64,000 nucleotides of DNA from an uncultured Gammaproteobacteria bacterium (lineage in GTDB: Bacteria > Patescibacteriota > Microgenomatia > Daviesbacterales > UBA10151): the NCBI GenBank assembly GCA_964523905.1, contig CAZFYQ010000002.1, positions 2,177-66,176 on the forward strand, in the 5' to 3' direction. Below the pieces are notes generated by a model. That model was not told the origin of the DNA. It searched no databases and saw only the letters and a program-made list of their open reading frames with translations. The position numbers and the translations under genes were made by a program. Positions 8,725 through 63,965 of this stretch are shown one piece after another. Position 1 is the stretch's first letter, and the number at the start of each line of letters is the position of its first letter.

Positions 8725-10872
8725 TTAGACTGTTGCACATTCGTACACTTCTGTTATGGCAGCAGCATATAATCGTTGTAATTCTTCAGGGCTGATAGTT
8801 ATTGCTGGTGGAATTACAGAATAAAGATCAGCGTTATCTTTAAAAGCAATTTTAATTGGATCAGTAATTTCATCTCCTTTTTTGGAAGCTTGAACATAAG
8901 TCCACCATCCTGTTTCTGGTGTTCCACCTCTTCCTTCTTCAGCACGAAGCTGATTAGCTACACGTAGTCCGTATTGTCTTTCAGCATCAGTCATATCTGG
9001 GAATCCTGCTTTTCTAAATAATTGGTCGGCTTTAGTAGAATAACCTTTGAAGATTGGTTTGCCGTCAACCCATTTATAAGGATGCTTAAACCACCGCATA
9101 CCCTCACCTCTATAAAGTGTTTGTTTATGGAGTGTATCAACTTGTTTTTTACCATCTACCAGTTCGTCTTTCAGTTCTCCTTCTTCTGTGCAGAGAACTT
9201 TTTTAAGGTTGGTTAGGATTAATAGTTCTAACCAAATTTGATCCTGTAGACTGGAGAATCTTTTAACATCTCCACCTGGAATAATTTTGTAACCTCGATC
9301 AAGGGTAATATTGTATGTCTGTTTATCAAGAGCTAGGCTAACATGAGTTTCACCTGTTTGTCTGTCAAATTTGAAGGTAGCATTTTGGTAACCCCTCTTC
9401 CTGGTATTAGGATCAAAAGAAATCCGATAACCTCTTTCACCTAAAGATCTTGTATAAATAGTCTGGATTTGTCTCCTTGCTTCCTGGGTTTTTCTAGAAA
9501 TCTCATCAAATTGCTCAGTAGAAATTACTGGCCTATGATACTCAATAATAGATGGTAATCTTCCAAGCTCTTCTTCTGTATGGGTAGGGAATACAGCAAA
9601 TACTATACTTTTACCAGCATCAAAGAAATCAAACAGACCATTTCTTAATACTGCTTCTGATAAAACTCTTTCCATCGGTACATAGAGTTTTCGCATGGGA
9701 TTGCTGGATTGTCCAGTTAATATAGCTTCTTTAACCTCATCAATAATCCAATTTCTTTGTTCTGCTGAATGGACACGTTGTGCCATTACAACCAGAGATA
9801 AATCATCATTAAGCTGAATAGGATGTTGCGTTTGTATTTCATACCCTTCTTCCTGAAGATCAATTATCTTGTTTTCCCATTTAGCCCTAAAAGCGGGATC
9901 CCCAAATTTATCTAAAACTAGTGTTCTGAGTGGTTCATTAGGGTCTCTTATAACATTATGAGGCCAATCATTGACATTGTGGGTAAGTTCATATCTATCT
10001 CTTCTTTCAGCTGTTTCCAAGAAAGTTCCTGCTGAACCAGGTAATTCCTGAACTAAATACCCCTGTTCTGTATAAACCTCAAATAAAGGTTCGGCTCTGG
10101 ATCCTAGTATAGCTCTTTGATTACCCACTAACTCATCTAATAGTCTTGATTGCACAGGAGGTAAATACCCGCCAGCCACAAATAACCGTAACATATTAGA
10201 TTTTGAACGTTCAGTGAGGGTTCCCACATAATCCATGGCAGTTAGTATAGAATGGAATCTTCCTAAATGTTTATCATCTGTAGCAAAAAATCCTGCTGTG
10301 AAATAAATAGCTGTTGGGGATGTTGCTGCAAGCCAGTCTTTTCTAAAACTTAAAATAGAAAAAAGCTCTCTTTGAACAGTTAAGTTTGAGGTATCTACCA
10401 TTGCCCAAGCAGTGTTGTATAAAAGGTCTATCGCATGATTTACTGATCTAGGGCTAGAAAATAAAGCAGCCTCTATTTTTTCAATATCCTGACCTTGTCT
10501 ACTATCCGAACCAGCAATACGAGTCATAGCCAAATTTAATATTTTCCCAGGGCCCCACATATTTAAATCTAAATTTCGGGCTAAAGCATTAGTTGTATTT
10601 CCAATAATAGCCTCTTTTGCCTCATCTGGTCTTAGATCAGTTCTTACAATGCTAACTACTCCTAAATTGTGAAGAAGTGGTCTTAGTGTTAATGGGTTAT
10701 CAAATATTTGCTGCGTAACTGAATCTAAAATTACTTGTTTTTCTGATGGCTGAGCAGTATGAAGCTCTTCCACGACATTAATAGTATCTTCCATTAATAT
10801 TGCTGGTGGTTGCATGGCCTCAAAATCACTAAGTTGGTTTCTGTCAGGTTCTAACATCAGAAAATTATACAC
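8725..10872 (-). CDS. Hypothetical large protein (715 aa), island operon member
   Basis: Long ORF with no recognisable motif, at the distal end of the minus-strand operon with the helicase-methylase fusion. Its composition differs from the flanking core genes. Confidence 0.6.
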   Translation of the reverse strand: MYNFLMLEPDRNQLSDFEAMQPPAILMEDTINVVEELHTAQPSEKQVILDSVTQQIFDNPLTLRPLLHNLGVVSIVRTDLRPDEAKEAIIGNTTNALARNLDLNMWGPGKILNLAMTRIAGSDSRQGQDIEKIEAALFSSPRSVNHAIDLLYNTAWAMVDTSNLTVQRELFSILSFRKDWLAATSPTAIYFTAGFFATDDKHLGRFHSILTAMDYVGTLTERSKSNMLRLFVAGGYLPPVQSRLLDELVGNQRAILGSRAEPLFEVYTEQGYLVQELPGSAGTFLETAERRDRYELTHNVNDWPHNVIRDPNEPLRTLVLDKFGDPAFRAKWENKIIDLQEEGYEIQTQHPIQLNDDLSLVVMAQRVHSAEQRNWIIDEVKEAILTGQSSNPMRKLYVPMERVLSEAVLRNGLFDFFDAGKSIVFAVFPTHTEEELGRLPSIIEYHRPVISTEQFDEISRKTQEARRQIQTIYTRSLGERGYRISFDPNTRKRGYQNATFKFDRQTGETHVSLALDKQTYNITLDRGYKIIPGGDVKRFSSLQDQIWLELLILTNLKKVLCTEEGELKDELVDGKKQVDTLHKQTLYRGEGMRWFKHPYKWVDGKPIFKGYSTKADQLFRKAGFPDMTDAERQYGLRVANQLRAEEGRGGTPETGWWTYVQASKKGDEITDPIKIAFKDNADLYSVIPPAITISPEELQRLYAAAITEVYECATV

Positions 10873-14406: not shown

Positions 14407-15378
14407 CTAGAGTATGTTTTTTGCCCCGGCTTTTTCCATTGCATATATAGCACCTTTTGTTTTCTGGGTTTTTGTATCTCCAATTAACAAATCCGTCATG
14501 CCGATCCCACTAGTTTTATGGGTAAATCTGTAGGCATATTCTTTTTGATGCCTGGAAGGGAAAGGAAAAGAAGCTGTTCTCTCGTCTTCGGGAATATCTT
14601 TTTGAGCTCCGGCAATAATTCTTCTAAAAACTACAGGCACTTCATCTTCTTCAATATTTCTAAAATGCCTTTCCAAATTTTCCACAAATTGCAGCTGAAC
14701 TGGATTTTGAACTTCGGTTTTTAGATGATTAAGATAAGCAAAACATTTATCAACATCTTGATTATAAATTTCCAAAACTGCATCTCTTTCAGCTTGAGTT
14801 AAAATATCTAGTACTAAACCATCTTCAAAAAGTTCTTCTGGTAACTCTGGTAGAGGAAGAAGTTTTGGTCCTTCCGCCTCTCTTTTATAGAATCTTCTGG
14901 GTCCTAAATATTCACCAACTAATCTATATGTTCCGCTGATTAGAGTTTGTTTTGTTTGTTCATCAGCATCTCTGTAACGTCTGATACCGACTATTCTTGC
15001 CATTTGCAATTGAGTTACATACGGGCTTAGCTTTTCTATTAGGTCATCCTCTTGAGTTAGTAGATCTTTGGCCCGCTCATACCTTTGGAACTCGTCCATT
15101 TCCTGCTCTTCTCTTAGCTTATAACCTTTTCCAGTACACCAAATCCTGAATTGATTTAAAGCGTCAGGATTCCCTATAAAGTTGATAATATTAAATACTT
15201 CCTGTGGCCTAACTTCAAAATTTGCGACACTACGACAGGCAGTGAATCCTACTTGTTCTTCAGGTATAAATTCAAACAACTGAGTCATTTTTGCCCTGGT
15301 AATTTCCTGACCATTAGACTCTCGACCAATTGGGGTAGGGTCCTCCCTATAAGATATAATTCTTGGCTGTCTTTCCAT
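14407..15378 (-). CDS. N-terminal 323-aa portion of the SNF2 helicase-methyltransferase gene (ends 3 codons after an A AAA AAC tract)
   Basis: Ends with a degenerate SNF2 motif-I-like segment GIGMTDLLIGDTKTQKT. The downstream ORF continues the helicase in the -1 frame. Confidence 0.65.
   Translation of the reverse strand: MERQPRIISYREDPTPIGRESNGQEITRAKMTQLFEFIPEEQVGFTACRSVANFEVRPQEVFNIINFIGNPDALNQFRIWCTGKGYKLREEQEMDEFQRYERAKDLLTQEDDLIEKLSPYVTQLQMARIVGIRRYRDADEQTKQTLISGTYRLVGEYLGPRRFYKREAEGPKLLPLPELPEELFEDGLVLDILTQAERDAVLEIYNQDVDKCFAYLNHLKTEVQNPVQLQFVENLERHFRNIEEDEVPVVFRRIIAGAQKDIPEDERTASFPFPSRHQKEYAYRFTHKTSGIGMTDLLIGDTKTQKTKGAIYAMEKAGAKNIL
14416..14423 (-). other. A6 homopolymer / A_AAA_AAC heptamer at the junction of the two helicase ORFs (candidate -1 frameshift site or indel)
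   Basis: The minus strand reads gca aaa aac ata ctc tag. Shifting -1 at AAAAAAC joins ..EKAGAK to KHTLVVCPPGKT.. with no intervening stop. Confidence 0.5.
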
Positions 15379-15444
15379 TTTGCAGATTTTACCATAAATA
15401 AGCTTATAGTTTCAATACCTAATGCTATTTTCATAAAATCATAT

Positions 15445-15473
15445 TTGACAGAAATGATAAGCATATGTTACAC
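15445..15473 (+). promoter_or_regulatory. Sigma70-like promoter (TTGACA-17-TTACAC) for divergent island gene
   Basis: A perfect -35 and a plausible -10 lie just upstream of the ATG at 15475/15487. Confidence 0.4.
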
Positions 15474-15474
15474 T

Positions 15475-17529
15475 ATGGGACCGAATATGAGTATTGATAG
15501 ACTTAATGAAGATTTGGCCAGATGGAATCAAAGTATTGATGTTGTTAGTAACAGATCAAAACTTTTTGGTACCGTAGAAGGCCCTGAACAATATAGATAT
15601 GATTTAGCCACATCCCCTGTGGAAAAATTAGGACGCGTTAAAGAGGTTATGCGGGTGAGGACAATAATTTCAGAGGTTAGTCTTCCTAGACTCAGAGAAA
15701 AGGTTGAGGATATTCAAGTTAAAATTGAACATGAAGAGTTTAAAATAAATGTAAGAAATGGGATTATGGCAGAATTTGGCATTGAGGAATTAGAAAGAGC
15801 GCATCAAGCTGGAACATTGACTGATTTTGATTTACAAGTAGTTTCAGATGCAATGGAACAGGAAATAAGAATTCGATCAGGAGAAGCTCCCCCAATAGTG
15901 AATCCCATTTTAGAAAAACCAAAGACAGAACAAGCTCCTAACCCAGCTAGAGTAGATAATGAGAAAATATTTAGCGTCACATTTCCTAATGGAAATACTG
16001 CTGAGGTTACAGATGAAAGAGATTCAAAAATACTAGGAATCCTTTCCCAAGCAATGGATGGTATGCAAAACGGCGCTATAGATATTCCACAGGATGTAAT
16101 TGTCCGGGGAGTTTTTAATAGATTTGAAGTAGGTTTAGCAGAAGACATCAGAGATAGACTCGCAGTACATGCGCAAACAGTCGATTCAGTAGGATATCAA
16201 ATTGACAGAATTGACCGAATGCCTTCAGAGCAGCATGATCGAAGATTAAGACATATCTATAGAGTTCAAGAGAAGAAACCACAATCTCCTACTGAGCGGC
16301 ATCCTTCCCCTGGAGCTAATCCAGCAGAACCAGATAAAGCTGCAAGAAGAAGTGAAGAGGAAACTCTTTCTGAATCGGAGAAAGTATTAAAGGCATTAGA
16401 TCTTTTATTAGCTGATGAAAATATAGAAGCAGCTAGAGTTGTAGATCTAATGACAGAAAGATTAGAGAAAAATTTAGGAGTTGAAGGGGTAAATCTCCTA
16501 AATACAGTAAGTTATTTAATAAAAGAATTAAATGATATTTTTGATTGCTTAAATACAGATAGAATATATCAGCCTCAGCTGGCTCTATGGGAAAGAATTC
16601 GTATTTCGTCTGGACAAAGTGAAGATTTTCTGGCTAAAAAATTCTTTGAGACAAGAGTTAAAAACTGGTATAACAGAATGGTCAATGAAGATGGTAAATC
16701 CGCTTCAGTTACTGCAACAAAAGAAGGGGAGTTATTGATAAAAAGAGCAAGGGTATATGGTGCATTTCCATTTGTTTTAAGTAATGGTGGAACATACATT
16801 GCCAAAGGTGGTGTTGCGAAAAACTTAATGGAAGTATTAATCATGAATGAAGGGCAAGGACTTACTGCAGAAATATTAGGAATGTTAGCGTACGGTGTCG
16901 GTAAAAATGAGGCTGAGAAAAGATATAATACTAAATCTGCACGGTCAGCTGCGAATAATCTTAGACTTGATCCAGAATTAGCAGAAGTTGGCTATGAGGT
17001 TGTATCCATATTGCCCGAGGGTAGACAAAGGAGTCCGGATACTAAATTCATGCTCAGGCCGATTCCAGGTGTAGCACCAGAGGCTCATAAATCAACAAAA
17101 ACTGTTATTCTAGCTGGAGCTCCAGCATTAACAAGTCCTGAGCCTGAAGGTGCAGATGTAGATGTGCCACAACGAAAAGAATCCGCTAATAAAAATCAAT
17201 TAGAGGCGGAGCTAATTCAAGTAATCGCAGAGTTTGATCTTGTAAATCAGCCTGAATTTTTGAATGGTGCGCAAGTTACTAGGGTGGTGCATAATCTAAC
17301 CGCTCAAATGCAACGTAAATTAGTTGATGAAGGTAAATATCTTCAGCCTCACCATACTGAGGGTAAACTTTGGTTTTTTACATCCAAGCAGATAGCTCAG
17401 ATGGTTTTAATCATAGATCGTATGCGAAGTGGAGGAGTTAGAAAAGATTTCCTGAAGGATTTATTTGAAGTTACTGACCGTGCATATAGTAAAGCAGAAA
17501 TAGCCGCCATTATTATGGCAAAATCCTAA
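15475..17529 (+). CDS. Hypothetical acidic protein (~685 aa), divergent from helicase-methylase operon
   Basis: The ORF-track start at 15253 overlaps the opposite-strand gene. The internal ATG at 15475 or 15487 follows the promoter. No motif recognised. Confidence 0.55.
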   Translation: MGPNMSIDRLNEDLARWNQSIDVVSNRSKLFGTVEGPEQYRYDLATSPVEKLGRVKEVMRVRTIISEVSLPRLREKVEDIQVKIEHEEFKINVRNGIMAEFGIEELERAHQAGTLTDFDLQVVSDAMEQEIRIRSGEAPPIVNPILEKPKTEQAPNPARVDNEKIFSVTFPNGNTAEVTDERDSKILGILSQAMDGMQNGAIDIPQDVIVRGVFNRFEVGLAEDIRDRLAVHAQTVDSVGYQIDRIDRMPSEQHDRRLRHIYRVQEKKPQSPTERHPSPGANPAEPDKAARRSEEETLSESEKVLKALDLLLADENIEAARVVDLMTERLEKNLGVEGVNLLNTVSYLIKELNDIFDCLNTDRIYQPQLALWERIRISSGQSEDFLAKKFFETRVKNWYNRMVNEDGKSASVTATKEGELLIKRARVYGAFPFVLSNGGTYIAKGGVAKNLMEVLIMNEGQGLTAEILGMLAYGVGKNEAEKRYNTKSARSAANNLRLDPELAEVGYEVVSILPEGRQRSPDTKFMLRPIPGVAPEAHKSTKTVILAGAPALTSPEPEGADVDVPQRKESANKNQLEAELIQVIAEFDLVNQPEFLNGAQVTRVVHNLTAQMQRKLVDEGKYLQPHHTEGKLWFFTSKQIAQMVLIIDRMRSGGVRKDFLKDLFEVTDRAYSKAEIAAIIMAKS

Positions 17530-22408: not shown

Positions 22409-22660
22409 GTGAAAAGATTCTTAATAACTTTGGTTTTAAGTGTTTTGGTATGGCTATCAAGTGGAATTATTCAGCTTCTAGTTCAAAAGGATGTCGTTTC
22501 AGGATTCTTTTCGTTTGGTGGATCGTGTGAAATAACCGGTTATCCTATTGCACTGTGTATTTCCAGTCACGACAATTTAATGTTTATTGTCTTGAGTATA
22601 ATCAATATTGCCTTTTGGTTTTGGCTAATCCATTTTCTTGGAAGACGACTTGTTAAATAA
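22409..22660 (+). CDS. Small membrane protein (83 aa)
   Basis: Two hydrophobic segments. Confidence 0.4.
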   Translation: MKRFLITLVLSVLVWLSSGIIQLLVQKDVVSGFFSFGGSCEITGYPIALCISSHDNLMFIVLSIINIAFWFWLIHFLGRRLVK

Positions 22661-25591
22661 TTGTTTAACTTCTCGAAAAACAAAAGTTCTAATTGGCATC
22701 AGAGTAAATCCTAATAGCAGTAAAGTTAGCATACCAATTCCGCCGGAAACTATTAGTAAACCATTGAAAGTTTGTTTAGAAGTATCTAATTCCTTCATCG
22801 CCAGATTATCCCTAATTTCTTGGTTTACCTGAGCAGGACTTTTAAAAGTCACTCCCAGAACTGCAGGAGTTACTGGGATAAAGCTGTAAAAGGGGTGTGT
22901 TGCCTGGCTCCTGGCAATTACCGGTTCCAGAGGAAAATTGGTGGGAATAACCGTCGGACTCAAAGTTGAAGAAACTGCAGTGGGGGTTGGTGAAGGAGTA
23001 GGAGTGGTAGTTGGATCAGGGGTGTGAGTGGGTGTTGGTGACGGAGTGGGCGCGGCAATATTAAAAGTAATAGTTTGGGGTACTTCCTGGTTACCGGATT
23101 TATCAGTAGACATTACCTGTAGGGTAGTAGTACCAGCAGTAGAAATTGTAAAAGGCGCAACATAAGTCTGCACTGTCACACCATTATCCAAACTGTATTC
23201 AGTTTTTAAAATACCTGATCCGCTATCAGTGCCAGTTAAAGTAACTATAACTAGACCAGTATAAAAACCAGAAGAGTCTTTAGTCCCGGTAATAACAACT
23301 TGGGTTACTGGAGCTGTAAAATCTGTGGCAGTTGTAGCACTGGTGGGTGGAATAGTATTGCCACCCTGGCTTAAGAATGGGGGAGTATCAGAGTTGGTAT
23401 CTAAAGTTAAATCAATCTCGCTATTATCCGGCAAAGGCAGATTTTGATAAGTACTGGTTTGAGAGATTTGATCAGTTTTATAAACTCGTACTTTTAGATT
23501 AGTGGTTTTTTTAGTGGTGGTGGACGTTTTTTTAGTGACTTTAGCTTTAACTTTAACACCTTTTTTAACAAAAGCTTGTTTAGTATTACCAGTACTGCTG
23601 CAAGTGACTCCGGGAATATTTTGTTCCAGCTGACCCTGAGCATTTTGACCACAATGATTGCCAGCATCATCATATAAATCTAAACTGCCATCATCTAAAG
23701 TTAATTGTTGGCCTTCTAAAACAATTTTCTGATCTTTAACCTGAGTTGGCAAAGAATTATCATCATTTAAGATAGATTTAACAGTTAACATGGCGGAGCC
23801 GGAAGCATTAACTAAATCAGTATGTCCTTGTTCCACATAGTAAATCTTGGTAGCTCCTGATAAGTCCTGAGTATCTGTTTTTAAAGACGCGCTATATAAA
23901 GGTACAGTATTATCACCGTTAACATAAATCTCATCGGTTTTAGGCAGTAAATTAATTGGCCAGGTGATCCACCAGGTTTCATCAATCTGGCCTAAGGTCG
24001 GTTGAGCAGTGCCGACTATTTCGTAAATTTTTACTCCGTTAGTTTGACTAGAAGTTGAATCCAAAACATTATGTAACTGCTCACCGAAATTATAGACAGT
24101 CATGTTATAGCCCAGATTCGTTAATAAAGTTTTAGTTTCCGAATAATTTAAAGCGCCGGAAAATTGGTTATTATCAATATCGCGATCATCACGGTATGGA
24201 TAAGGATGGTCGATATCAGAGTTATTGTATAAATCGAAATATTTTGTAGATGGAACCAAAGAAAATTGTGAAGGAAAATTCTGTATGACGTCTTTGACTT
24301 CAGTGCCATTAACACCGATATTGATAATTTTAAAATACCATCTACCCAATGGTTCACCGTAAACAATAGCTTTTATTGCAGAAGGTGCTCCTAAATGTGG
24401 AGTACCTAATTCTATCAATTTGTTAACCTTAGAGGCTTTGGTGGTATCGGTTATGTAGTTTCTGGCAATTAGACCACCCATAGAATGGGTCACCAGGTTA
24501 ACTTTGGTTTGCCCGGAAGCGGTTTTAGCAGATTCTATTAACTGATCCAAAGCTGTTTGGTTACTGCGGACATCTTTCCGCCAGTCATAATTAAATACAA
24601 AGTAATTTGTGCCTTTGGTATAACCCATTTGGGTAAAAAAGTTATCAATATCCCCATATCCAAAAGAAGTTAAATTGCCGGTTAAACCAATGGCCGCGCT
24701 TGATGTCACCCCATCCTGATTCATCCGTAGTACATCAAAATAATCATCATCCCCTAAAGCTGCTGCCTGATCCTGGTTAACCCAAATCTTTTCATTGTTG
24801 GTATAGCCGTGAGAAAAAATGCCGCCATGACCGTTATCCGTAGACCAGATAATATCCTGTGAGGCCTTCATTTCTGAGCCACCAATTCCGGGAATAAATA
24901 TCACTGGTAAGCGCGGTGGCGGCGGGGGAGGCGCATTATTATTTAATACAAAGTAGAGGTCATCTTTGGCTGTGGTAAAAATATTACAGCCGTTATTGCT
25001 GCTGGTTGATCCGTAAACATAAGAGGCAGGAGAGCAGATGCCATTATCAAAAGCGTAACGTACTCCCCCGCCTGTGAAGTAATCAGTACTTGGTTTACCA
25101 GAGTAGGTAGCTGAACCCAGTAGTAGTGCACCGGAGCCGGAATTGCTTTGGTTAGCATTAGATAGCTGGATTAGATAGCGATGTCCGGTAATGAAATTAT
25201 AATTTCGGCAGGAAAAATCAAGAGTGACATCCTCATAACCTGAAGGTAGCCCGGTGGTAGTAAAAGTGAGGCCGTTTAACGGGTCAGATGAGTTGGTAAC
25301 ACAAGCATAAACAAAGGAATTGTTGTTATCTTTATCAAAAATCCGGGAATTTAAAGCCGTAAAATTAAACTGATTAGTGTTAGGCCTGCTGGTAGAAACC
25401 CGGAAGGTAAAGTTTTGTAAAGTACCGGATAAATTATTGCCCAGTTCCTGAATTGATTCCCAGACATTTAAAGAAGAAGAATAGTCAGTGGTTTGTTGAG
25501 CAATGGTGACTGCTTCAACCGGCAAAATGGTAACTGTAAGAATTGTTACCACAAAGATTAGACCCTTAAGTAGAAAGATGGGCAGTTTCAC
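22625..25591 (-). CDS. Secreted/surface alpha/beta-hydrolase (lipase/PGAP1-like GHSMGG motif) with Ig-like domains, Pro/Thr-rich linker and C-terminal TM anchor
   Basis: Signal peptide, LVTHSMGGL (GxSxG), beta-rich repeats, a PTPSPTPT linker and a C-terminal hydrophobic helix. Confidence 0.7.
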   Translation of the reverse strand: MKLPIFLLKGLIFVVTILTVTILPVEAVTIAQQTTDYSSSLNVWESIQELGNNLSGTLQNFTFRVSTSRPNTNQFNFTALNSRIFDKDNNNSFVYACVTNSSDPLNGLTFTTTGLPSGYEDVTLDFSCRNYNFITGHRYLIQLSNANQSNSGSGALLLGSATYSGKPSTDYFTGGGVRYAFDNGICSPASYVYGSTSSNNGCNIFTTAKDDLYFVLNNNAPPPPPPRLPVIFIPGIGGSEMKASQDIIWSTDNGHGGIFSHGYTNNEKIWVNQDQAAALGDDDYFDVLRMNQDGVTSSAAIGLTGNLTSFGYGDIDNFFTQMGYTKGTNYFVFNYDWRKDVRSNQTALDQLIESAKTASGQTKVNLVTHSMGGLIARNYITDTTKASKVNKLIELGTPHLGAPSAIKAIVYGEPLGRWYFKIINIGVNGTEVKDVIQNFPSQFSLVPSTKYFDLYNNSDIDHPYPYRDDRDIDNNQFSGALNYSETKTLLTNLGYNMTVYNFGEQLHNVLDSTSSQTNGVKIYEIVGTAQPTLGQIDETWWITWPINLLPKTDEIYVNGDNTVPLYSASLKTDTQDLSGATKIYYVEQGHTDLVNASGSAMLTVKSILNDDNSLPTQVKDQKIVLEGQQLTLDDGSLDLYDDAGNHCGQNAQGQLEQNIPGVTCSSTGNTKQAFVKKGVKVKAKVTKKTSTTTKKTTNLKVRVYKTDQISQTSTYQNLPLPDNSEIDLTLDTNSDTPPFLSQGGNTIPPTSATTATDFTAPVTQVVITGTKDSSGFYTGLVIVTLTGTDSGSGILKTEYSLDNGVTVQTYVAPFTISTAGTTTLQVMSTDKSGNQEVPQTITFNIAAPTPSPTPTHTPDPTTTPTPSPTPTAVSSTLSPTVIPTNFPLEPVIARSQATHPFYSFIPVTPAVLGVTFKSPAQVNQEIRDNLAMKELDTSKQTFNGLLIVSGGIGMLTLLLLGFTLMPIRTFVFREVKQLFNKSSSKKMD

Positions 25592-26379: not shown

Positions 26380-26445
26380 AGGGGGGTACCACATCTTGTA
26401 TATTGACACTTCATGATATCAACATGTTATGTTAATATAGGTAAT

Positions 26446-26886
26446 GTGAAATGTCCTTTCTGTGCAAGCGATTTAAGCAAAGTAGTTGATAAAAGGTCAG
26501 TAACTGGACGGGGTGAAATCAGAAGACGAAGGCAGTGTCTTAAGTGTGATAAAAGATTTACCACGTATGAGTCTTTGGCTCAACTACAACTGGCGGTGCT
26601 AAAAAAAGACGGCACCAGACAGGCATTTGATGGGGAAAAGATTAGGAGAGGGTTAATTAGGGCTTTGGAAAAACGGCCGGGAATAGAAAAAGTGGGCACT
26701 ATTGTGGATCGGATTGAAGGTAGAATTAGGGCTAGAAGACTTAGTGAAATTGAGTCAGCCACTTTAGGAAAATGGGTGCTGTCAGAGCTGAAAAAATTGG
26801 ATGCGGTGGCATATCTTCGATATGTTAGTGTCTACCGATCTTTTGGAGACTTAAAAGACTTTAGTAAAGAATTAGAAACACTATGA
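26446..26886 (+). CDS. nrdR: Transcriptional repressor NrdR
   Basis: A zinc ribbon KCPFC...CLKC followed by an ATP-cone. GTG start chosen to give the canonical MKCPFC N-terminus; the ORF-track start is 26413. Confidence 0.85.
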   Translation: MKCPFCASDLSKVVDKRSVTGRGEIRRRRQCLKCDKRFTTYESLAQLQLAVLKKDGTRQAFDGEKIRRGLIRALEKRPGIEKVGTIVDRIEGRIRARRLSEIESATLGKWVLSELKKLDAVAYLRYVSVYRSFGDLKDFSKELETL

Positions 26887-29800
26887 AAACAAAATCAAAG
26901 AGTAAATCAATATCACAAATCGTTACAATGCCCAGGGTTAATGGACAAAGAAAAACTAATGGTCATAACGATGAAAGAACTTTTGAAACCAGGTTTACGC
27001 CCCGCTATAAAAAAATGCCAGCTTTGCCTCAGGGTTTACCAGAGCCATCATTTTCTGAATCTTCCAATAAAATTTTAATTGAAAGATATTTGTTAAAAGG
27101 CGGTAATTTGGAAGTGGTAGAAACCGTGGCTGAAAGGTTTTGGCATATAGCCTATGACATTGCCTCCGGTGATATGGATTTTGGTGCCTCTGAAAAAGAT
27201 GTCACAGAACTTGCCAAAGGGTTTTTCTCTGTGATGGTTAATCAACAATTTTTACCTAACTCCCCCACCATCATGAATGCTGGAAAGCAAAATGGTTTGC
27301 AATATTCCGCTTGTTTTGTGTTGCCGGTGGGGGATTCTTTGCCGGAGATTTTTGACTCTGTTAAATATGCTGCTTTAATTCATCAAACCGGTGGCGGAAC
27401 CGGTTTTGCATTTTCCAGGCTTCGCGCAGCCGGTTCTATTGTAAATACCACTGGTGGTGTGGCTTCCGGGCCAGTATCATTCCTGCGGGTGTTTAATGCT
27501 GCTACTGAATCTATTAAACAAGGTGGCACCAGAAGAGGAGCTAATATGGGAATTTTGCGGGTGGATCATCCGGATGTAATGGAATTTATCCGCTGTAAAG
27601 CAGAGCTGGATGATTTAAATAAACCAGTTTATGAAGGAGTGGCACCATTACTTGCCGATGACAGCGCCAGAAGCTATTTTAAGACGCTTTTGTTGGATAA
27701 ACAAATTGCCAACTTTAATATTTCCGTGGCCATTACTGATAAGTTCATGAAAGCTTTGCAAACTGATGGCGATTTTGATTTGATTGCTCCTCATGATGGC
27801 TCAGTAGTGGGACAGTTAAATGCTAAGGCAGTGTTTGATGAGATTATTGAACGGGCTTGGGCAACCGGAGACCCGGGATTGATTTTTATTGACCGCATTA
27901 ATAACTCCCCTGCCAACCCGGTACCATCTTTGGAAACCATTGAATCCACTAATCCTTGTGTTACTGGAGATACTTTAGTTGCAACAGATAATGGATGGCA
28001 ACGTGCAGATAGTATTAAAATAGGTGATAGAATCAGCACTGTATTAGGCAGTGGTGAAGTAGATCAGGTAGAAGTATATGAGGATCGCTCTGTTTTTAAA
28101 GTAAAATTTTCTGATGGTGCAGAAATAAGAGCAACGGCCGCCCACCAATTTCATGCTATTGTTCATGAGCAGAGAACCAAAAATTCAGCCAATAAACAAT
28201 TTTCCCCAATAAAACTCGAGGATTTAAAGGTAGGAGATATGGTGAGGATAGCACCTGCCATTATGCCTGATAATGCTGTTTCTGATCTACCTACGGGATG
28301 GACAGAAAGAGAATATGGTTTTTTTGTCGGAGTGCTTTTAGGGGATGGTTGTATTACTGAAAAAACCTTAACAAGAAATGTAGTAAAGGTAGCAGTAAAC
28401 ACTAATGAAAAGGAATGGACTGAAATCATTAAGAATGTTTTACACAAGGCGGGTTCAAAGGTAGTAAACCTTGATCGTAGCGCTGGTTTTTCTGCTAATT
28501 TAACAGTACAAAATGCCGGGGGTGCAGCAATGTTGGTTAGAAACTCTTTTTTGAAACCTGCCTATTCTTACGAGAAAAGTATACCTTTAGAATACCAGAA
28601 TACTAACAGACAGTTTTTATCAGGACTTTTAGATGGACTTTATTCAACAGACGGAAATGTAAATTTAACCAGTACACATCCTTTTTTAAGATTAAAAACT
28701 ACTAGTAAAAAACTAGCTCAAGATTTACGCAGAATTTTATTATCTTTTGGTATTCATGGAAGAATAGTTACTATTAAAAAGGTTGCTGATAGTCATATAG
28801 GAGATAGAATAATCACCGCGAAACATATTCAATATGAAGTGATAGTTTCTGGATCAAGCATGAAAACTTTTGCTCAACAAATTACTCTTTCTCATCCTGA
28901 TAAACAAAAAAGAATACAGCGGGCTCAGCTGACTTTTGCTTTAACGGGTAACACTTGGTTATCACAAATTACCTCCATTGAACCAGATGGTATAGAAAAA
29001 GTATACGATTTGCATGAACCAGTTTCAGATACCTGGTTAACAGAGGGTGTAGTTAGCCGTGGATGTGGCGAGCAACCATTGGCTCCTTGGGATGCATGTA
29101 ATTTGGGATCAATTAATTTGGGTAAATTTGTCTTGGCTGATGGATCAGATGTAGATTGGGAAGGATTAAAATCAGTCACTCACCAGGCAGTGCACTTTTT
29201 GGATAATGTAGTGCAAACCAATCCGTATACTTTAAAGCCAATTTATGATGAAGTTCACAACAACCGCCGAATTGGTTTAGGGGTAATGGGTTGGGCAGAT
29301 ATGCTGTTTTTACTGCAAATTCCCTATGATTCTGAGGAAGCTTTGGAACTAGGAGAAAAAGTGATGAAATTTATTAATGATGAAGGTCATATGGAATCTG
29401 AAGACCTAGCTAGCAAAAGAGGACCCTTCCCTAACTGGATAAACTCAATTTATGCCCAAAAAGGTCATAAATCCTTTAAAGCCAGACCAGATGGATCCTT
29501 TGCCTTTGAAGGTGGTCGGCCAATTAGAAATTCTACCGTCACTACCATTGCACCAACAGGGACAATTTCGATTATTGGTGATTGTTCATCGGGAATTGAG
29601 CCGGTCTTTGCTTTGGCTTATATTCACCGCGCTAAAAAAGCCGGGGATGAAATGCGATATTTAACTATTGCTAATAAAACCTTTGATCAAATTGCCAAAA
29701 GAGAAGGTTTTTGGTCACCGGATTTAGCTCAAAAAGTAATGGATAATGGATCTGTGTTTGGTTTGGATGATGTGCCTCAAAACTGGCAGAAAGTGTTTAC

Positions 29801-30641
29801 TACTGCCCCGCAAATTTCTCCGGATTATCATGTCAGGATGCAGGCCGCTTTTCAAAGATATACTGATAATGGAGTTTCCAAAACCATTAATTTGCCAAAC
29901 TGGGCCACCCGTGATGATGTTAGAAATGCTTACCTTTCTGCTTGGGATACTGGTTGTAATGGTATTACCATTTATAGAGATGGTAGTAAAACCACTCAGG
30001 TATTAAATGTTTCTTCTACTTTAAAACCAGCTCAAGTGGCTGCTGAGGAAGTGCCAGTCGCTGCCAGGCCAATGATTTTACGGGGTCGCACTTATAAAAT
30101 TACTACCCCGGTGGGAGAAGCATTTATTACTATTAATCGAGATGAAGGGGATCAGCCATTTGAAGTATTTATTACGGTTGGAAAGGGTGGCATGCACACT
30201 ATGGCTGATGCTGAGGCCATGGGAAGACTCGTATCTTTGTCTTTAAGACTTTCTCGCGCCGGAGGAGAAAGTACTGCTAAAGAAATTGCAGGGAAGATTG
30301 CTGAGCAGCTGCGGGGAATTGGTGGATCATCTCATGTTGGATTTGGTAAAAACAGGGTGATGAGTTTGGCCGATGCGATTGCCAAGGTTTTATCAGAGGA
30401 TATGGCGGTGGGTATAAATAATGAAGGTTTAGAGAATACTGAACCAATACCTCTAAATTTAACTATGAGTAATGGTGAGCAGAAGTTAGATACTGGAAAT
30501 TTGAAGTTGGAAGATCAAGCTTCTAGCCTCTCGCTTCCAGTTTCTAGCAATGCTGATCTTTGTCCAGAATGTGGCTCCGCTACTTTCGTAATGGAAGAGG
30601 GCTGTAAGAAATGTCATAGCTGTGGGTACAGTATGTGCTAA
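26883..30641 (+). CDS. nrdJ: Class II (adenosylcobalamin-dependent) ribonucleotide reductase NrdJ, interrupted by an in-frame intein
   Basis: The NPCGEQPL active-site motif is split as ..STNP | intein | CGEQPL.., with a C-terminal CxxC..CxxC zinc ribbon. The ATG overlaps the nrdR stop (ATGA). Confidence 0.9.
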   Translation: MKTKSKSKSISQIVTMPRVNGQRKTNGHNDERTFETRFTPRYKKMPALPQGLPEPSFSESSNKILIERYLLKGGNLEVVETVAERFWHIAYDIASGDMDFGASEKDVTELAKGFFSVMVNQQFLPNSPTIMNAGKQNGLQYSACFVLPVGDSLPEIFDSVKYAALIHQTGGGTGFAFSRLRAAGSIVNTTGGVASGPVSFLRVFNAATESIKQGGTRRGANMGILRVDHPDVMEFIRCKAELDDLNKPVYEGVAPLLADDSARSYFKTLLLDKQIANFNISVAITDKFMKALQTDGDFDLIAPHDGSVVGQLNAKAVFDEIIERAWATGDPGLIFIDRINNSPANPVPSLETIESTNPCVTGDTLVATDNGWQRADSIKIGDRISTVLGSGEVDQVEVYEDRSVFKVKFSDGAEIRATAAHQFHAIVHEQRTKNSANKQFSPIKLEDLKVGDMVRIAPAIMPDNAVSDLPTGWTEREYGFFVGVLLGDGCITEKTLTRNVVKVAVNTNEKEWTEIIKNVLHKAGSKVVNLDRSAGFSANLTVQNAGGAAMLVRNSFLKPAYSYEKSIPLEYQNTNRQFLSGLLDGLYSTDGNVNLTSTHPFLRLKTTSKKLAQDLRRILLSFGIHGRIVTIKKVADSHIGDRIITAKHIQYEVIVSGSSMKTFAQQITLSHPDKQKRIQRAQLTFALTGNTWLSQITSIEPDGIEKVYDLHEPVSDTWLTEGVVSRGCGEQPLAPWDACNLGSINLGKFVLADGSDVDWEGLKSVTHQAVHFLDNVVQTNPYTLKPIYDEVHNNRRIGLGVMGWADMLFLLQIPYDSEEALELGEKVMKFINDEGHMESEDLASKRGPFPNWINSIYAQKGHKSFKARPDGSFAFEGGRPIRNSTVTTIAPTGTISIIGDCSSGIEPVFALAYIHRAKKAGDEMRYLTIANKTFDQIAKREGFWSPDLAQKVMDNGSVFGLDDVPQNWQKVFTTAPQISPDYHVRMQAAFQRYTDNGVSKTINLPNWATRDDVRNAYLSAWDTGCNGITIYRDGSKTTQVLNVSSTLKPAQVAAEEVPVAARPMILRGRTYKITTPVGEAFITINRDEGDQPFEVFITVGKGGMHTMADAEAMGRLVSLSLRLSRAGGESTAKEIAGKIAEQLRGIGGSSHVGFGKNRVMSLADAIAKVLSEDMAVGINNEGLENTEPIPLNLTMSNGEQKLDTGNLKLEDQASSLSLPVSSNADLCPECGSATFVMEEGCKKCHSCGYSMC
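27957..29063 (+). mobile_element. Intein with LAGLIDADG homing-endonuclease domain inside nrdJ (369 aa)
   Basis: Block A CVTGDTLV, block B RATAAHQF, LAGLIDADG blocks YGFFVGVLLGDGCI and FLSGLLDGLYSTDGNV, and block F/G-like KVYDLHEPVSDTWLTEGVVSRG followed by the extein Cys. Confidence 0.85.
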
Positions 30642-51634: not shown

Positions 51635-54600
51635 ATGCCCGAAATAGCAGATGTAGCAGTTCTAGATAAAGTGGCAATAAGTTTAGCCCCGCGTGATAAT
51701 GACCCAGCAAAATTTAATGGTGATATCGCTGATGAATTTTCGCAAACAAATATTGAGCCACTAACTCCTATGAAGGGAGCAATTGTGATTCTGGTAAAAG
51801 AAGGGTTTAATCAACCTCAGATAGAACATAATTTCTACAATGAAATGCAGCAGGAAATGGCCTACTTTTCTCGTACCAGAGATTTAGAAATAGGTAGTGA
51901 AAGAACCAATTTTTTGGAACAAAGAATAATTGATCCTTTAATGCCTACCCTTGAGAGCCAAGGGGTTAGTAGACCAAGGATAGTGATTATGAGAAAAGGA
52001 GAAGAACCAGAGGCTTTTGTGATGCCTGATGGAACAATCTTTTTATCCCAATCTTTAATTAATTCACTAGATACTATCGATGAGATTGGCGGTGTGGTAG
52101 CTCATGAATTAGGCCACTTAATTAATAGAACTTTCAATAAAAAAGTTGAAGCTAACCAAGCTAGTAAAATGGGTGTGGGTTGGTTGCATGAGGCAGCTTC
52201 CGACATGGGGGCACAAGCATTGCTAGAAAGGGCAAATTTAAATTCATATGCCTTTGGTGATGCTATAAAAAAAATTGCAAGAGTTTCAAGAGATATTGAA
52301 CACCAAACTGGTTTAATTAGGGCGGTTGAAGTAAATGCAATGCATAGTGCTATTAACTTTAGTACTAGTAATAAAACACCAGAAAAAATTACCGATCATC
52401 ATCAAAGCCTCTATCATGAATTAACCCCAACTAATTTGGAATTATTGAATGTAGCAATTACCACTGGAAATAAGGAAAGATTTTTAGAGGGAATTGCTAA
52501 ACTTCATCCTAAAGACTTGGAAAAAATCTATAAGACTGGTTATTTCAGACAAAGTCACTTAGATAGATCTTTCATAAACGCTTCACTTGCTGAATTAGTT
52601 TCAAAAAGATTACACACAGCAGGATATAGTGATGCTGAAATAGCTGGTTTTCTAATCTATACAGGAGGACTCCTCTCGAAAGTAAATTTTCCTAATTCGG
52701 AGATGGTTTCCCAATTGGGCGATTTTTTTACCAGGGATGACCGAGACATTGTTCATTATAGAATGTATAGAGAAATATTCCAAAATAGATTCTCTTCTGA
52801 TGAGCCAACAGTTCTTACCTACGTCAATTATTTGAAAAGTCAAATGTTCATTGAAGGAACAGAATACCCAGGTAGGATAATGCCTATAACTGAGGAGGTT
52901 TTGCTAGATACTCTTTATAAAGTTACCCATGTTGAATTACCGGCTGATAAGCGTAGTTATAAACATACTATAGAAAGTGTAGTTAAGGATTGTCTATTTG
53001 TTTACATAAAGCAAAAATATGGTGTGATGCAAGATACCGTTAATATTCCTGTTGCTGAAATTACCCCCTTTTTAGAAAAGGTAAAACAGAAAGATATTCC
53101 AATATTTAATTACTTTAATAAGGAAATAGAAAATCCAGAATTGATTTCTTTATTTAAACAGATTTTACTTCCTCCTGAAGTAAGGTTGAAGGTAGGATTT
53201 CAAGATATTGATGCTTTTTTCGAATTAATTGATGATCCTGAATTTTCTAGAGGAGATTTCGCTAAAAAGTTAACATGGGAAGTGCATCAATTAAATGAGT
53301 ATTTCAACCAAGAAAGCATAACCGATTCTAAAAGAGGTGAATATATTAGTTATATTTTTAACAAAATTGATCAGCTGCAAAATATCAGCGTAGACAGATC
53401 AATACTTGCAACCTTAAGTCCAGATAAAGCGAAAAGCCCTGGAGAACAGGGCAGGGAATATAACGATGCTTTAGTTAGGTTTAACCTTAAAATGATTTAT
53501 GCGGCAAATGTATTTGAAAAAGACGGTGAGGAGTACTACAGGTATCTTAATCAAGCCATGGTCGAATCTAATATTCCCTTTGAAGATTTATCATTTGAGC
53601 AGCTAATTAATATTTCTCAAGGACTACTAGAATCAGAGAGTGACAGATCACCTCACTTTATCAGTTATTTGCAAGAAGGTTCCGGGGGATCCCTTGCATT
53701 TCACCATAAAGCAGAATGGGGGGTTACTGACTTTACCAAATTTTCAGAGTTGCCATTAATTAGAGCAGCCATTAACAAACAAGAGCACTTAAATTTTAGC
53801 AACATAGCAGAATTAAATAACCATGTAATAACTCTTTTAAGAGAAGCTGTAATTGATTCACAAGCAAATACTATTACACTACCATATAAAGGAATGCATT
53901 TCGGATTATATGAAACAAGTATAAAATCCCTTATTTTTGGTAAAGGTATCAGAAAAGAATTTATCAGATTACTGAACCAGGGTGTGCCAGTTGGAGAATA
54001 TGATGAGGTCTATCACTTTTTGTCTCGCCATTTCGCTGATAGTCAGGAAACAAAATCCATTATGAGAGAAATCAGTAAAAGATATTTGCAGTCAGATGCA
54101 TCATTAGAGGAAAAAACAACATATTTACGAGCCAATTTTTCAATGATAGGGCCTGAAGGAATGGTAATGTTGGGAAATCAAATTGATACTATGGCTGATT
54201 ATTTAGCATTTAGAAAAGAAATGGGTGAGCATTTACAAAAATCTTTAAATGGTTCTTTAACAACCTCTCTTATTGCCGCAGCAGATTTTACTACATCTCA
54301 AATACCTGAAAAAGATCAATTATTTAATACATGTTCAGAAGATCCGGAGGAAAGCAAACATGATACAACCAATTTTGCGAACAAATGGTTGCAAACGAAC
54401 TTTAGTTATATGGGGGGCTTTATTGCTTTTGATAATAAAACAAAAACAATAGTAGTTGATGAAAGGGAGAGGGGAGCTTTTAGATCTTTCGCGGATATAA
54501 TTTCCTCATTAAAAGATTTAACTAATATCCAAAGAATAGCAGTGGCTTTAAAAGCTTTAGTAGATCAGGATGGAGCTCTAGCTAATTCCGATAATAAAGA

Positions 54601-62429: not shown

Positions 62430-63965
62430 TTGAAGACTGTGAAAAACAAACTGATTTTTGGGATTTTAATTATTGGCATTGTATATCGCTTGTTTTTAAC
62501 TGCCAACGGTAATTTCCTATTCAATATGGATAATGCCAGGGATATGTTAGATGTTCGGGAGATGGTGGTCTTACACAAACTAAGACTTACCGGACCAACC
62601 TCGGCTATTACAGGATTATTTAATGGTCCGGCTTGGTATTATTTGTTGGCGGTCCCCTTTTTATTGTCTGGGGGTAGTCCATATGCTGAGATTTTAATGG
62701 AGATAATTCTTTGGGCAATTGGTGGATATTTTTTACTTAAATTAGTTAGCAAATGGGGAAGTTTACTGATTTTACCAATTGGAGGAGTGTGGATTGCTTC
62801 TAATTATATAACCTTAACTAATTTATACGCTTTTAATCCTAACCCGGTAACTTTACTAGCTCCTTTATTTATTTTTCTGTTACTTAAGTTTTTGGAAACA
62901 GGTAAATCATTATATGGAATCTCGGTTTGGTTTTTAGCAGGATTATTTTTTAACTTTGAAATGAATGCCGGAGTGTTTATGCCGGTAATTATTTTAGTCA
63001 GTATTATTCTGTCAAAGAATTTAAAACTTTTGAAACAAAAAACTTTCTGGGCTGGTTTAGCTGCTTTTGTTATTACTTTGTTGCCTCAGATTTTATTTGA
63101 TTTAAAGCATCAATTTCTGATGAGTAAAGCAGTTTTAGTTTTTTTACATGATGGAAATGGCGGAGGAAAATTTAATCCACTTCTTCGAATTCCAACAATT
63201 GCCGGGGATTTTTTTAATACTTTTATTCCAACATTAATGAACCATCAGACCTTGTCAGTAATTCTTTTACTGTTATTTTTGGTGGTCGTTTTAAAAAAGT
63301 GGAGACAGATTTTAGAAAAAGATTTACTAGTATTAATTTCTTTAATTTATATCTTGGTACCCTTTTTAGGTTATTTAATAATTCCGGTCACAGTTAACCC
63401 TTGGCATTTGGGAGGAGAAATGAGTGTTTCTCTAATTCTCTTAGGATATTTACTGGAAGAAATTTGGCATCTAAATTGGAGGGGAAAAATAGTGAGTGTG
63501 GTCCTGGGAATATTTTTAGTAATCTATGCCATCAGTAACGTAGTTCATTTCTTTGTCAGCGATTTTGGAAAACCCAGTGGTGACCCTTCTTTATACAGAA
63601 ATGAAACAGCTGCCATAGATTATGTATATCAAAAGGCTAATGGTAAAAACTTTAAGGTCTATACTTATCTTCCTTCAGTTTATGATTTTCCTTACCAATA
63701 TTTATTTTGGTGGTATGGTAAAAAAACATATGGATATATTCCCGGTGACTATGCTTATTCTCCTAATAAACCTCCGTATGTTGCTAGTCAAAGTCAGTTT
63801 TATGGGTCCCAGACTAATTATTCCGGACTGGTTTTTTTAATTAAAGAACCGGATCATAACTATACCCGCCCTGGTTGGGAAGGCGCTTTTGTAAAATTAC
63901 CTACAATTAGTACCCAAATGGTTGGCCCTATTGAAGTAGAAATCAGAAAAGAACACCCTCAATAG
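62430..63965 (+). CDS. Polytopic membrane glycosyltransferase-like protein, paralog of 57077..58549
   Basis: Shares an N-terminal pattern with the 57077 protein (D-rich loop, then RLxGxxTSAxGxFxGPxxYYxLxVPFxLL). Confidence 0.55.
   Translation: MKTVKNKLIFGILIIGIVYRLFLTANGNFLFNMDNARDMLDVREMVVLHKLRLTGPTSAITGLFNGPAWYYLLAVPFLLSGGSPYAEILMEIILWAIGGYFLLKLVSKWGSLLILPIGGVWIASNYITLTNLYAFNPNPVTLLAPLFIFLLLKFLETGKSLYGISVWFLAGLFFNFEMNAGVFMPVIILVSIILSKNLKLLKQKTFWAGLAAFVITLLPQILFDLKHQFLMSKAVLVFLHDGNGGGKFNPLLRIPTIAGDFFNTFIPTLMNHQTLSVILLLLFLVVVLKKWRQILEKDLLVLISLIYILVPFLGYLIIPVTVNPWHLGGEMSVSLILLGYLLEEIWHLNWRGKIVSVVLGIFLVIYAISNVVHFFVSDFGKPSGDPSLYRNETAAIDYVYQKANGKNFKVYTYLPSVYDFPYQYLFWWYGKKTYGYIPGDYAYSPNKPPYVASQSQFYGSQTNYSGLVFLIKEPDHNYTRPGWEGAFVKLPTISTQMVGPIEVEIRKEHPQ

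Follow-up and report, generated by a model that had tools for sequence, protein, structure and literature searches.

Glycine-terminal inteins at the catalytic cysteine of class II ribonucleotide reductases: candidates for an intein class that completes splicing without cyclization of the last residue

The 64 kb stretch of contig CAZFYQ010000002.1 (assembly GCA_964523905.1) that was analyzed here, hereafter called the window, carries on its forward strand nrdR, which encodes a transcriptional repressor of ribonucleotide reductase (RNR) genes, and nrdJ, which encodes a class II adenosylcobalamin-dependent RNR, whereby the nrdR stop and the nrdJ start overlap by 4 nt. The nrdJ open reading frame (ORF) is interrupted by one intein, whose last two residues are Arg-Gly in the place where His-Asn would be expected. 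This Gly terminus is not a one-off but the mark of a large, conserved, and mobile family of inteins, which, as judged from sequence, potentially constitutes a new mechanistic class. All coordinates refer to the whole window and those of the features are compiled in Table 1.

The host gene was identified by Pfam and NCBIfam profiles. The ORF matches the Pfam domains Ribonuc_red_lgN, Ribonuc_red_lgC (E 3.6e-124), and TSCPD, with LAGLIDADG_3 and Intein_splicing lying inside the barrel domain. It passes the B12-RNR model NF006417 with 973.7 bits (cut-off 961) and scores 664.8 bits with NrdJ_Z (TIGR02504). Behind the TSCPD domain, at the very C-terminus of NrdJ (30480..30641), there is a Cys-rich tail that resembles a zinc ribbon. 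With a slash marking the splice junctions, the intein begins at ESTNP/CVTGDTLV... and ends at ...DTWLTEGVVSRG/CGEQ. In silico removal of residues 359-727 yielded a spliced extein of 883 aa, which aligned to NrdJ of T. maritima (1xje) with an E of 6.4e-113 and without a gap across the junction (TNPCGE; INSTNPCGEIGLSDYEACNLGSIDV on the 1xje side). Because this alignment is gap-free, the insertion point can be assigned exactly: it directly precedes the Cys of the finger-loop motif NPCGE. An earlier note on this DNA had proposed, from the letters alone, a LAGLIDADG intein at NP/CGEQ of NrdJ and had suggested to examine whether the extein is continuous without residues 359-727; both the profile matches and the continuous spliced product bear out this assignment. 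The Cys of NPCGE, which is the +1 residue of the intein, is the thiyl-radical cysteine of class II RNRs. Since the intein directly precedes the catalytic Cys, the unspliced precursor cannot be active and splicing is required for reductase function.

The C-terminal end reads ...SDTWLTEGVVSRG/C, where Arg-Gly is encoded by cgt gga and followed by tgt for Cys, exactly as the earlier note had read it. From the span given there (27957-29066) the start stands, but the intein ends at 29063 and the last three nucleotides are the codon of the +1 Cys. The spacing between blocks F and G (from VYDL to the end) is residue for residue equal to that of canonical inteins at the same NrdJ site, and no Asn or Gln occurs within the last 21 intein residues. 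The only candidate for another junction, in which an Asn, Gln, or Asp would be followed by Cys, Ser, or Thr, is SD/T at positions -12/-11. It was rejected, since it would add 11 residues to the finger loop of the RNR and break the block F-G spacing. The junction is thus placed correctly, and a misplacement, which had been left as one possibility, is refuted by the gap-free 1xje alignment together with the canonical block spacing.

In its N-terminal part and its fold the element is a regular intein. Blocks A and B and both LAGLIDADG blocks had been described as intact, which was corroborated by the presence of Cys1 and of Thr60 and His63, by the motif positions (Table 1), and by the N-terminal model TIGR01445 (intein_Nterm), which the intein passes with 27.8 bits (cut-off 24.5). 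Acidic residues are kept in both LAGLIDADG motifs. An AlphaFold2 model of the intein, built with a family alignment of 22 sequences, reached a predicted local distance difference test (pLDDT) value of 90.8 and a predicted template modelling score (pTM) of 0.91. In Foldseek searches with this model PI-SceI was the best match (E 3.5e-19), and TliVMA, PI-PfuI, PI-PkoII, and gp41-1 were found as well, while the inserted domain matched the LAGLIDADG enzymes I-DmoI and I-Tsp061I. With two motifs and a matching fold, the inserted domain is a predicted LAGLIDADG homing endonuclease. A phmmer search of the single intein sequence against the PDB sequences gave no match; the profile of the family splicing domain matches the solved inteins gp41-1 (1e-8), DnaB inteins, Mxe GyrA, and Ssp DnaB. 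By its fold, its position, and the chemistry of its N-terminus the element is therefore an intein, but it lacks the C-terminal feature that defines inteins.

Table 1. Features of the nrdR-nrdJ locus and of the NrdJ intein (window coordinates).
Feature	Position	Strand	Description	Support
nrdR	26413..26886	+	transcriptional repressor of RNR genes	Pfam Zn_ribbon_NrdR 3.5e-17, ATP-cone 5e-15
nrdJ precursor ORF	26883..30641	+	1252 aa, class II adenosylcobalamin-dependent RNR, one intein	Pfam, NCBIfam
N-extein	26883..27956	+	aa 1-358, ending ...ETIESTNP	
Intein	27957..29063	+	369 aa, protein residues 359-727; HINT (Hedgehog/intein) splicing domain split by predicted LAGLIDADG homing-endonuclease domain	
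Block A	27957..27995	+	CVTGDTLVATDNG; Cys1 = N-terminal nucleophile	Cys1 in 70/70 of the Gly-terminal family
Glu39	28071..28073	+	acidic residue specific to the Gly-terminal family	Glu 68/70, Asp 1/70; acidic 0/21 in other types
Block B	28125..28154	+	IRATAAHQFH (Thr60, His63)	family: Thr 67/70 (Ser in 3), His 70/70
LAGLIDADG motif 1	28314..28352	+	YGFFVGVLLGDGC	Foldseek matches I-DmoI, PI-SceI
LAGLIDADG motif 2	28614..28661	+	FLSGLLDGLYSTDGNV	PF14528 over intein residues 221-309, E 4.9e-17
Block F	28998..29036	+	KVYDLHEPVSDTW; F:4 Asp351 (29007-29009), F:13 Asp358 (29028-29030; canonical His)	
Block G	29037..29063	+	LTEGVVSRG; Arg368 (29058-29060) for penultimate His, Gly369 (29061-29063) for terminal Asn	
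+1 Cys	29064..29066	+	first C-extein residue, Cys of RNR active-site motif NPCGE	
C-extein	29064..30641	+	remaining RNR barrel, TSCPD domain, C-terminal Cys-rich tail	

In the literature, the C-terminal residues of inteins are given as Asn, Gln, Asp, and Glu only, cyclization at the C-terminus counts as an indispensable third step of splicing in all three known intein classes, and classes 2 and 3 are distinguished only by their N-terminal steps (PMC4031507). A 2020 review concurs with regard to the C-terminal residues and the classes. Neither a Gly-terminal intein nor a fourth intein class was found in the literature searched, although a description elsewhere is possible. The NrdJ intein of the window lacks all features that canonically serve step 3, namely a cyclizable terminal residue (Gly369), the His at position 13 of block F (F:13; here Asp358), and the His at position 6 of block G (G:6; here Arg368). 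Cyclization of the terminal Asn is the basis on which inteins are classed as asparagine lyases, and assistance of step 3 by the F:13 and G:6 His residues is common among inteins but not universal. Because Gly has no side chain, the last step of this intein cannot be a cyclization of the terminal residue. Profile searches reflect the unusual end: the PF14890 match stops three profile positions short of the profile end, and the model TIGR01443 (intein_Cterm; cut-off 15.6 bits) matched neither the window intein nor two other members of the family, whereas controls from the same insertion site pass it (Asn-terminal inteins with 23.8 and 29.5 bits, a Gln-terminal intein with 23.6 bits).

A search over 1.84 billion representative proteins led to 2416 matches, 77 of them below 1e-30. 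Among the retrieved proteins there were 95 complete inteins at the NrdJ site, of which 74 end in Gly, nine in Asn, eight in Asp, and four in Gln. Positional conservation was counted in 70 Gly-terminal inteins. Within their splicing domain the mean identity is 41% only; despite this, Gly-1, Asp-12 (F:13), Gly-6, the +1 Cys, and the Asp at F:4 occur without exception (70/70), and Trp-10 in 68/70. Other positions vary, such as -2 (Arg in 49, Gln in 15, Val in five, and Leu in one of the 70) and -3 (Ser, Gln, Asn, or His). Hence, beyond what had been noted before, it is not the terminal Asn and penultimate His alone that are replaced: family-wide, the F:13 His has also given way, to an invariant Asp.

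When the four terminal types were compared column by column, the residue at the last position (G:7) was found to vary together with several others. Gly-type inteins have Asp at F:13, one of Arg, Gln, Val, or Leu at G:6, and almost always an acidic residue at position 39 (Table 1). In the Asp type F:13 is Leu or Phe, G:6 is Leu, Phe, or Tyr, and position 39 is mostly Tyr. Asn-type inteins carry His, Asn, Ser, or Leu at F:13, His at G:6 in 8/9 cases, and mostly Phe at position 39, and Gln-type inteins carry His or Asn at F:13, His at G:6 in 3/4 cases, and Gln, Ile, or Leu at position 39; in none of these three types is position 39 ever acidic. In a pattern scan of 204 proteins, terminal Gly and F:13 Asp occurred together in 91/91 cases, never one without the other, and at the NrdJ site only.

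On the genome level, 85 loci were detected in a scan with one genome per species, and sequences were retrieved for 80 of them. In each of these 80 the reading frame runs without interruption from the N-extein through the intein into the C-extein, and the intein has the same terminus. The carriers, all of them metagenome-assembled genomes (MAGs), belong to Patescibacteria/candidate phyla radiation (CPR), Chloroflexota, Rokubacteria, Acidobacteria, Nitrospinota, DPANN archaea, haloarchaea, and Thermoplasmata, and include a thaumarchaeon; the loci nearest to the window intein are from Patescibacteria and Daviesbacteria MAGs. A look-up for a protein identical to the NrdJ of the window found no record. 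In addition, 26 IMG/VR contigs (L081-L107, up to 340 kb), taken as viral by their database label, carry a Gly-terminal intein in an open NrdJ frame, so that viruses may be a vehicle by which the family spreads across bacteria and archaea. Among cultured phage records only distant (25% identity) canonical RNR inteins were found. With at least 74 protein clusters, 80 genomes, 26 viral contigs, and four different Gly codons (see below) sharing the terminus, a sequencing error, as considered earlier, or the decay of a single copy is refuted.

In 15 of the 70 Gly-terminal inteins the endonuclease is missing and mini-inteins of 129-155 aa are left, in which the Gly terminus is kept. Natural mini-inteins of 129-167 aa without a LAGLIDADG domain, ending in ...SDTWITEGYVSRG/C, are found in Rokubacteria and Chloroflexota (P0010, P0012-P0017, L043-L069). 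Some further variations were observed in the collection. In L039, L070, L075, L078, and P0088 the intein is followed by CAEQ, CSEQ, or CFEQ instead of CGEQ. The NrdJ proteins P0032 (2020 aa), P0066 (2116 aa), P0074 (2359 aa), L016, and L079 are about twice the normal length and were matched by the query in several stretches; they apparently contain two to four inteins, among them a Gly-type one (in P0066 an Asp-type one) at the catalytic Cys. The closest database proteins, P0001-P0003 from Levybacteria and Blackburnbacteria MAGs, are labelled "partial": P0001 and P0002 (590 aa, ending in ...YEVIISG) break off inside the intein, and P0003 starts inside it and has a tail that looks frameshifted, which are probably assembly or contig breaks rather than biology.

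The coding sequences point to an element that is maintained. In the 81 loci compared, the codons for the terminal Gly are GGC (27), GGA (22), GGG (19), and GGT (13), and those for Asp-12 are GAC (43) and GAT (38), whereby for Arg-2 all six Arg codons are in use. The use of all four Gly codons indicates that selection acts on the amino acid. Between the window intein and its nearest relatives L001 and L002 a pN of 0.16 was determined at a saturated pS of 0.72-0.74, from which the intein appears to be under strong purifying selection. Compared with CPR loci of the L005-L015 group (L005, L006, L007, L011, L015), the window intein shows about 70% identity, in contrast to 34-39% over 300 aa of flanking extein. 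Since the intein is more conserved than the NrdJ around it, it has been exchanged among nrdJ genes that are themselves divergent, which points to recent horizontal homing. Two extein lineages can be told apart by the motif in front of the junction, IESTNP or LIATNP. The main argument for function follows from the insertion site: because without splicing each invasion of the active site would destroy the enzyme, we infer that the family is splicing-competent.

For phylogenetic analysis, a neighbour-joining tree of the inteins at this site was calculated with the diagnostic columns removed and 200 bootstraps. A single clade of the Gly type was recovered in 161/200 bootstraps. This clade is placed together with the Asp type, opposite Asn plus Gln, in the best tree, though with a weak support of 66/200, and it shares 31% identity with the Asp type versus 24% with the Asn type.

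Taken together, the earlier note had offered three explanations for the C-terminus, and the one remaining is an unusual splicing mechanism. We rate it as somewhat likelier than even odds that the window carries a functional mobile intein which resolves the branched intermediate without cyclizing its last residue, probably via the cross-strand Asp at F:13. Steps 1 and 2 would be canonical, that is, an N-S shift at Cys1 assisted by block B and a trans-thioesterification to Cys+1 assisted by the Asp at F:4. In step 3, the carboxylate of Asp358 would then act in trans and cleave the amide between Gly and Cys(+1) in the branched intermediate, either by attacking the Gly carbonyl to form a mixed anhydride that is subsequently hydrolysed, or by activating a water molecule that hydrolyses the Gly-Cys(+1) amide. 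Glu39 might be a second carboxylate partner. Ligation would be completed by a normal S-to-N shift.

A geometric basis for this proposal is offered by the AlphaFold2 model. There, the last two strands according to DSSP span residues 365-368 and 371-374 and are joined by a turn of two residues, so that paired residues sum to 739, which would make Asp-12 (model residue 364) the cross-strand neighbour of Gly-1 (model residue 375). In canonical inteins the F:13 His acts on the Asn at G:7 and on the tetrahedral intermediate (PMC4031507). The reciprocal pattern of Leu (F:13) with Asp (end) in one type and Asp (F:13) with Gly (end) in the other reads as a transfer of the carboxylate to the cross-strand neighbour, whereby Gly would make room. 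We give an about even chance to the more specific proposal that the Gly-terminal NrdJ inteins are a new mechanistic class in which the carboxylate, terminal in the related inteins that end in Asp, has been relocated to the cross-strand position F:13 and acts in trans on the Gly-Cys bond via an anhydride or activated water.

Several points speak against this proposal. The carriers of the family are, without exception, MAGs of uncultured organisms or viral contigs. The proximity of Asp and Gly is derived from the register of a modelled hairpin and from analogy, and the co-variation lies inside one clade and is thus phylogenetically confounded. Hydrolysis of an amide by a lone carboxylate is chemically demanding, and as position -2 varies among Arg, Gln, Val, and Leu, there is no obvious residue for an oxyanion hole.

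The main rival chemistry, which we regard as unlikely, would start with an N-to-S acyl shift of the Gly-Cys(+1) bond itself. This shift would free the alpha-amine of Cys+1, which would directly attack the N-extein thioester on Cys1, whereby Asp F:13 and Glu39 could act as acid/base catalysts. The Gly thioester of the intein would be hydrolysed or else be captured by its own Cys1, resulting in a circular intein. It would make sense in this context that Gly is the least hindered residue for an N-to-S acyl shift, low steric hindrance and backbone flexibility being its only obvious chemical merit, and that both Gly-1 and Cys+1 are invariant. Alternative routes have reportedly also been proposed for an Asp-terminal RNR intein (see below). 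However, the invariance of Cys+1 is uninformative with respect to the intein because this residue is fixed by the RNR active site. Furthermore, such a route needs a direct aminolysis in place of the well-supported trans-thioesterification, and it leaves the position of the F:13 carboxylate as well as the reciprocal Leu/Asp versus Asp/Gly pattern unexplained. Amide cleavage by the F:13 Asp is the chemistry that we favour.

It seems quite improbable that the last step is taken over by a trans factor, for instance a protease or ligase of the host, a small-molecule nucleophile, or a cofactor, or that splicing is conditional, with the Gly end rendering the last step regulated and not autocatalytic. 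Conditional splicing is known for other inteins, and the insertion at the redox-active catalytic Cys of an NrdR-regulated enzyme would be a suitable place for it. However, the same terminus occurs in bacteria, archaea, and viral contigs, which argues against a lineage-specific factor, and no conserved partner gene adjoining nrdJ was seen in the window. We also know of no precedent for an exact ligation by an external enzyme.

Very improbable is a dead or splicing-impaired intein in an nrdJ gene that persists as a non-functional relic while the host uses another reductase or scavenges nucleotides. The terminal residue that cannot be cyclized and the missing TIGR01443 match would agree with such a relic, and organisms of the CPR and DPANN groups are often symbionts, for which a supply of scavenged deoxynucleotides is conceivable. 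Yet the frames are open through exteins and intein in all 80 fetched genomes and in the 26 viral contigs, the exteins retain all RNR motifs and pass the equivalog cut-off, and the coupling to nrdR upstream is still present. Purifying selection, the preservation of Gly through four codons, the repeated transfer into divergent NrdJ genes, and mini-inteins that retain their splicing blocks and terminus after loss of the endonuclease likewise suggest that impaired splicing, as the earlier note had considered it, is not the explanation. Finally, the possibility that a regular His-Asn end is masked by an artefact, be it a wrongly placed junction, a frameshift, or a sequencing error, has nothing but the prior expectation of such ends in its favour and is refuted by the gap-free restoration of the host motif, the canonical block F-G spacing, the lack of Asn and Gln near the end, and the recurrence of the terminus in more than 100 independent assemblies.

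With regard to the other genes of the window, no second RNR was found among ten of the twelve other ORFs of at least 500 aa in these 64 kb. A further long ORF, upstream of nrdR at 22625..25591 (-), encodes a protein of 988 aa with a signal-peptide-like start, matches to LCAT/PGAP1-like lipases (alpha/beta hydrolases), and a C-terminal part rich in Pro and Thr; this protein has no connection with the intein. The sole Pfam signal in the 1556-aa protein from 51635..56305 (+) is a short M48 peptidase match, and the large ORFs at 8725..10872 (-), 15253..17529 (+), and 62430..63965 (+) are without a Pfam match.

If the proposal holds true, a natural family with a terminal Gly would represent a different way to break the bond between intein and C-extein. 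It would also offer mini-inteins of about 130 aa that leave no succinimide and in which the C-terminal step is set by a separate, mutable residue, which would make them attractive for controllable cleavage and ligation tools. Since TIGR01443 misses the Gly-terminal family, its members are annotated as "hypothetical protein" or "LAGLIDADG endonuclease", and their number is probably underestimated in surveys of inteins. That the carriers are uncultured and that the standard C-terminal model misses the Gly type would explain why the family has gone unremarked so far.

Among inteins of known structure, PI-SceI, TliVMA, and PI-PfuI share the two-domain architecture of the window intein (Foldseek E 3.5e-19 to 1.4e-16, template modelling score about 0.6), but they have only 11-14% identity to it, reside in other host proteins, and have canonical His-Asn ends. 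A profile match to the bacterial intein-like (BIL) structure 2lwy was weak (E 0.0046). BIL domains are found in variable, non-essential proteins, have no endonuclease, and often lack a +1 nucleophile, whereas the window intein sits in the NrdJ active site and has both a LAGLIDADG domain and the +1 Cys.

The nearest relatives in the best tree, the Asp-terminal inteins, use the same NrdJ insertion site as the Gly type (TNP/C.../CGEQ). Like the Gly type they have Trp at -10, Thr at -8, and Ser at -3, lack the His residues at F:13 and G:6, and are missed by TIGR01443. In contrast to the Gly type, their last residue is Asp, for which cyclization is possible in principle, and F:13 is occupied by Leu or Phe, where the Gly type has Asp in combination with Glu39. 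The characterised C-terminal-Asp intein is that of the Carboxydothermus hydrogenoformans RIR1 protein (Amitai, Dassa and Pietrokovski, J Biol Chem 2004, 279:3121), which is presumably of the Asp type at the NrdJ site considered here. It was not among the matches of a protein search with an Asp-type query, all of which were shorter than about 650 aa; NrdJ precursors in their full length of 1000-2000 aa came up only in the search over representative proteins, which may explain this absence. In that work, substitution of the terminal residue by Ala is said to have still allowed C-terminal cleavage, which cyclization does not explain and for which alternative routes were reportedly proposed. A natural family that works with a terminal Gly, if confirmed, would account for this reported cleavage of an RNR intein with a non-cyclizing terminal residue.

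Canonical class 1 inteins, which end in His-Asn or, as in the RNR intein of Chilo iridescent virus, in His-Gln, have Cys1, the block B Thr/His, the F:4 Asp, the +1 nucleophile, the HINT fold, and the LAGLIDADG insertion in common with the Gly type. Canonical allelic inteins even occur at the very same NrdJ site, with ends of the form ...THSFxANGxVVHN/CGEQ and ...HQ/CGEQ. The difference lies in step 3, of which all three residues are changed in the Gly type: His to Asp at F:13, His to Arg, Gln, Val, or Leu at G:6, and Asn to Gly at G:7. The signature of class 3, no Cys1 and a Cys at F:4, is absent from the Gly type, which has Cys1 and, in 70/70 members, Asp at F:4. Class 2 inteins with Ala1, such as Mja KlbA, and class 3 inteins with the F:4 Cys, such as the Bethlehem DnaB intein, have lost a nucleophile once regarded as universal, and another active-site residue compensates for it (PMC4031507, PMC2807308). 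In these classes it is the N-terminal steps that differ, while the terminal Asn is retained; the Gly-terminal inteins retain the N-terminal steps and differ in the C-terminal one.

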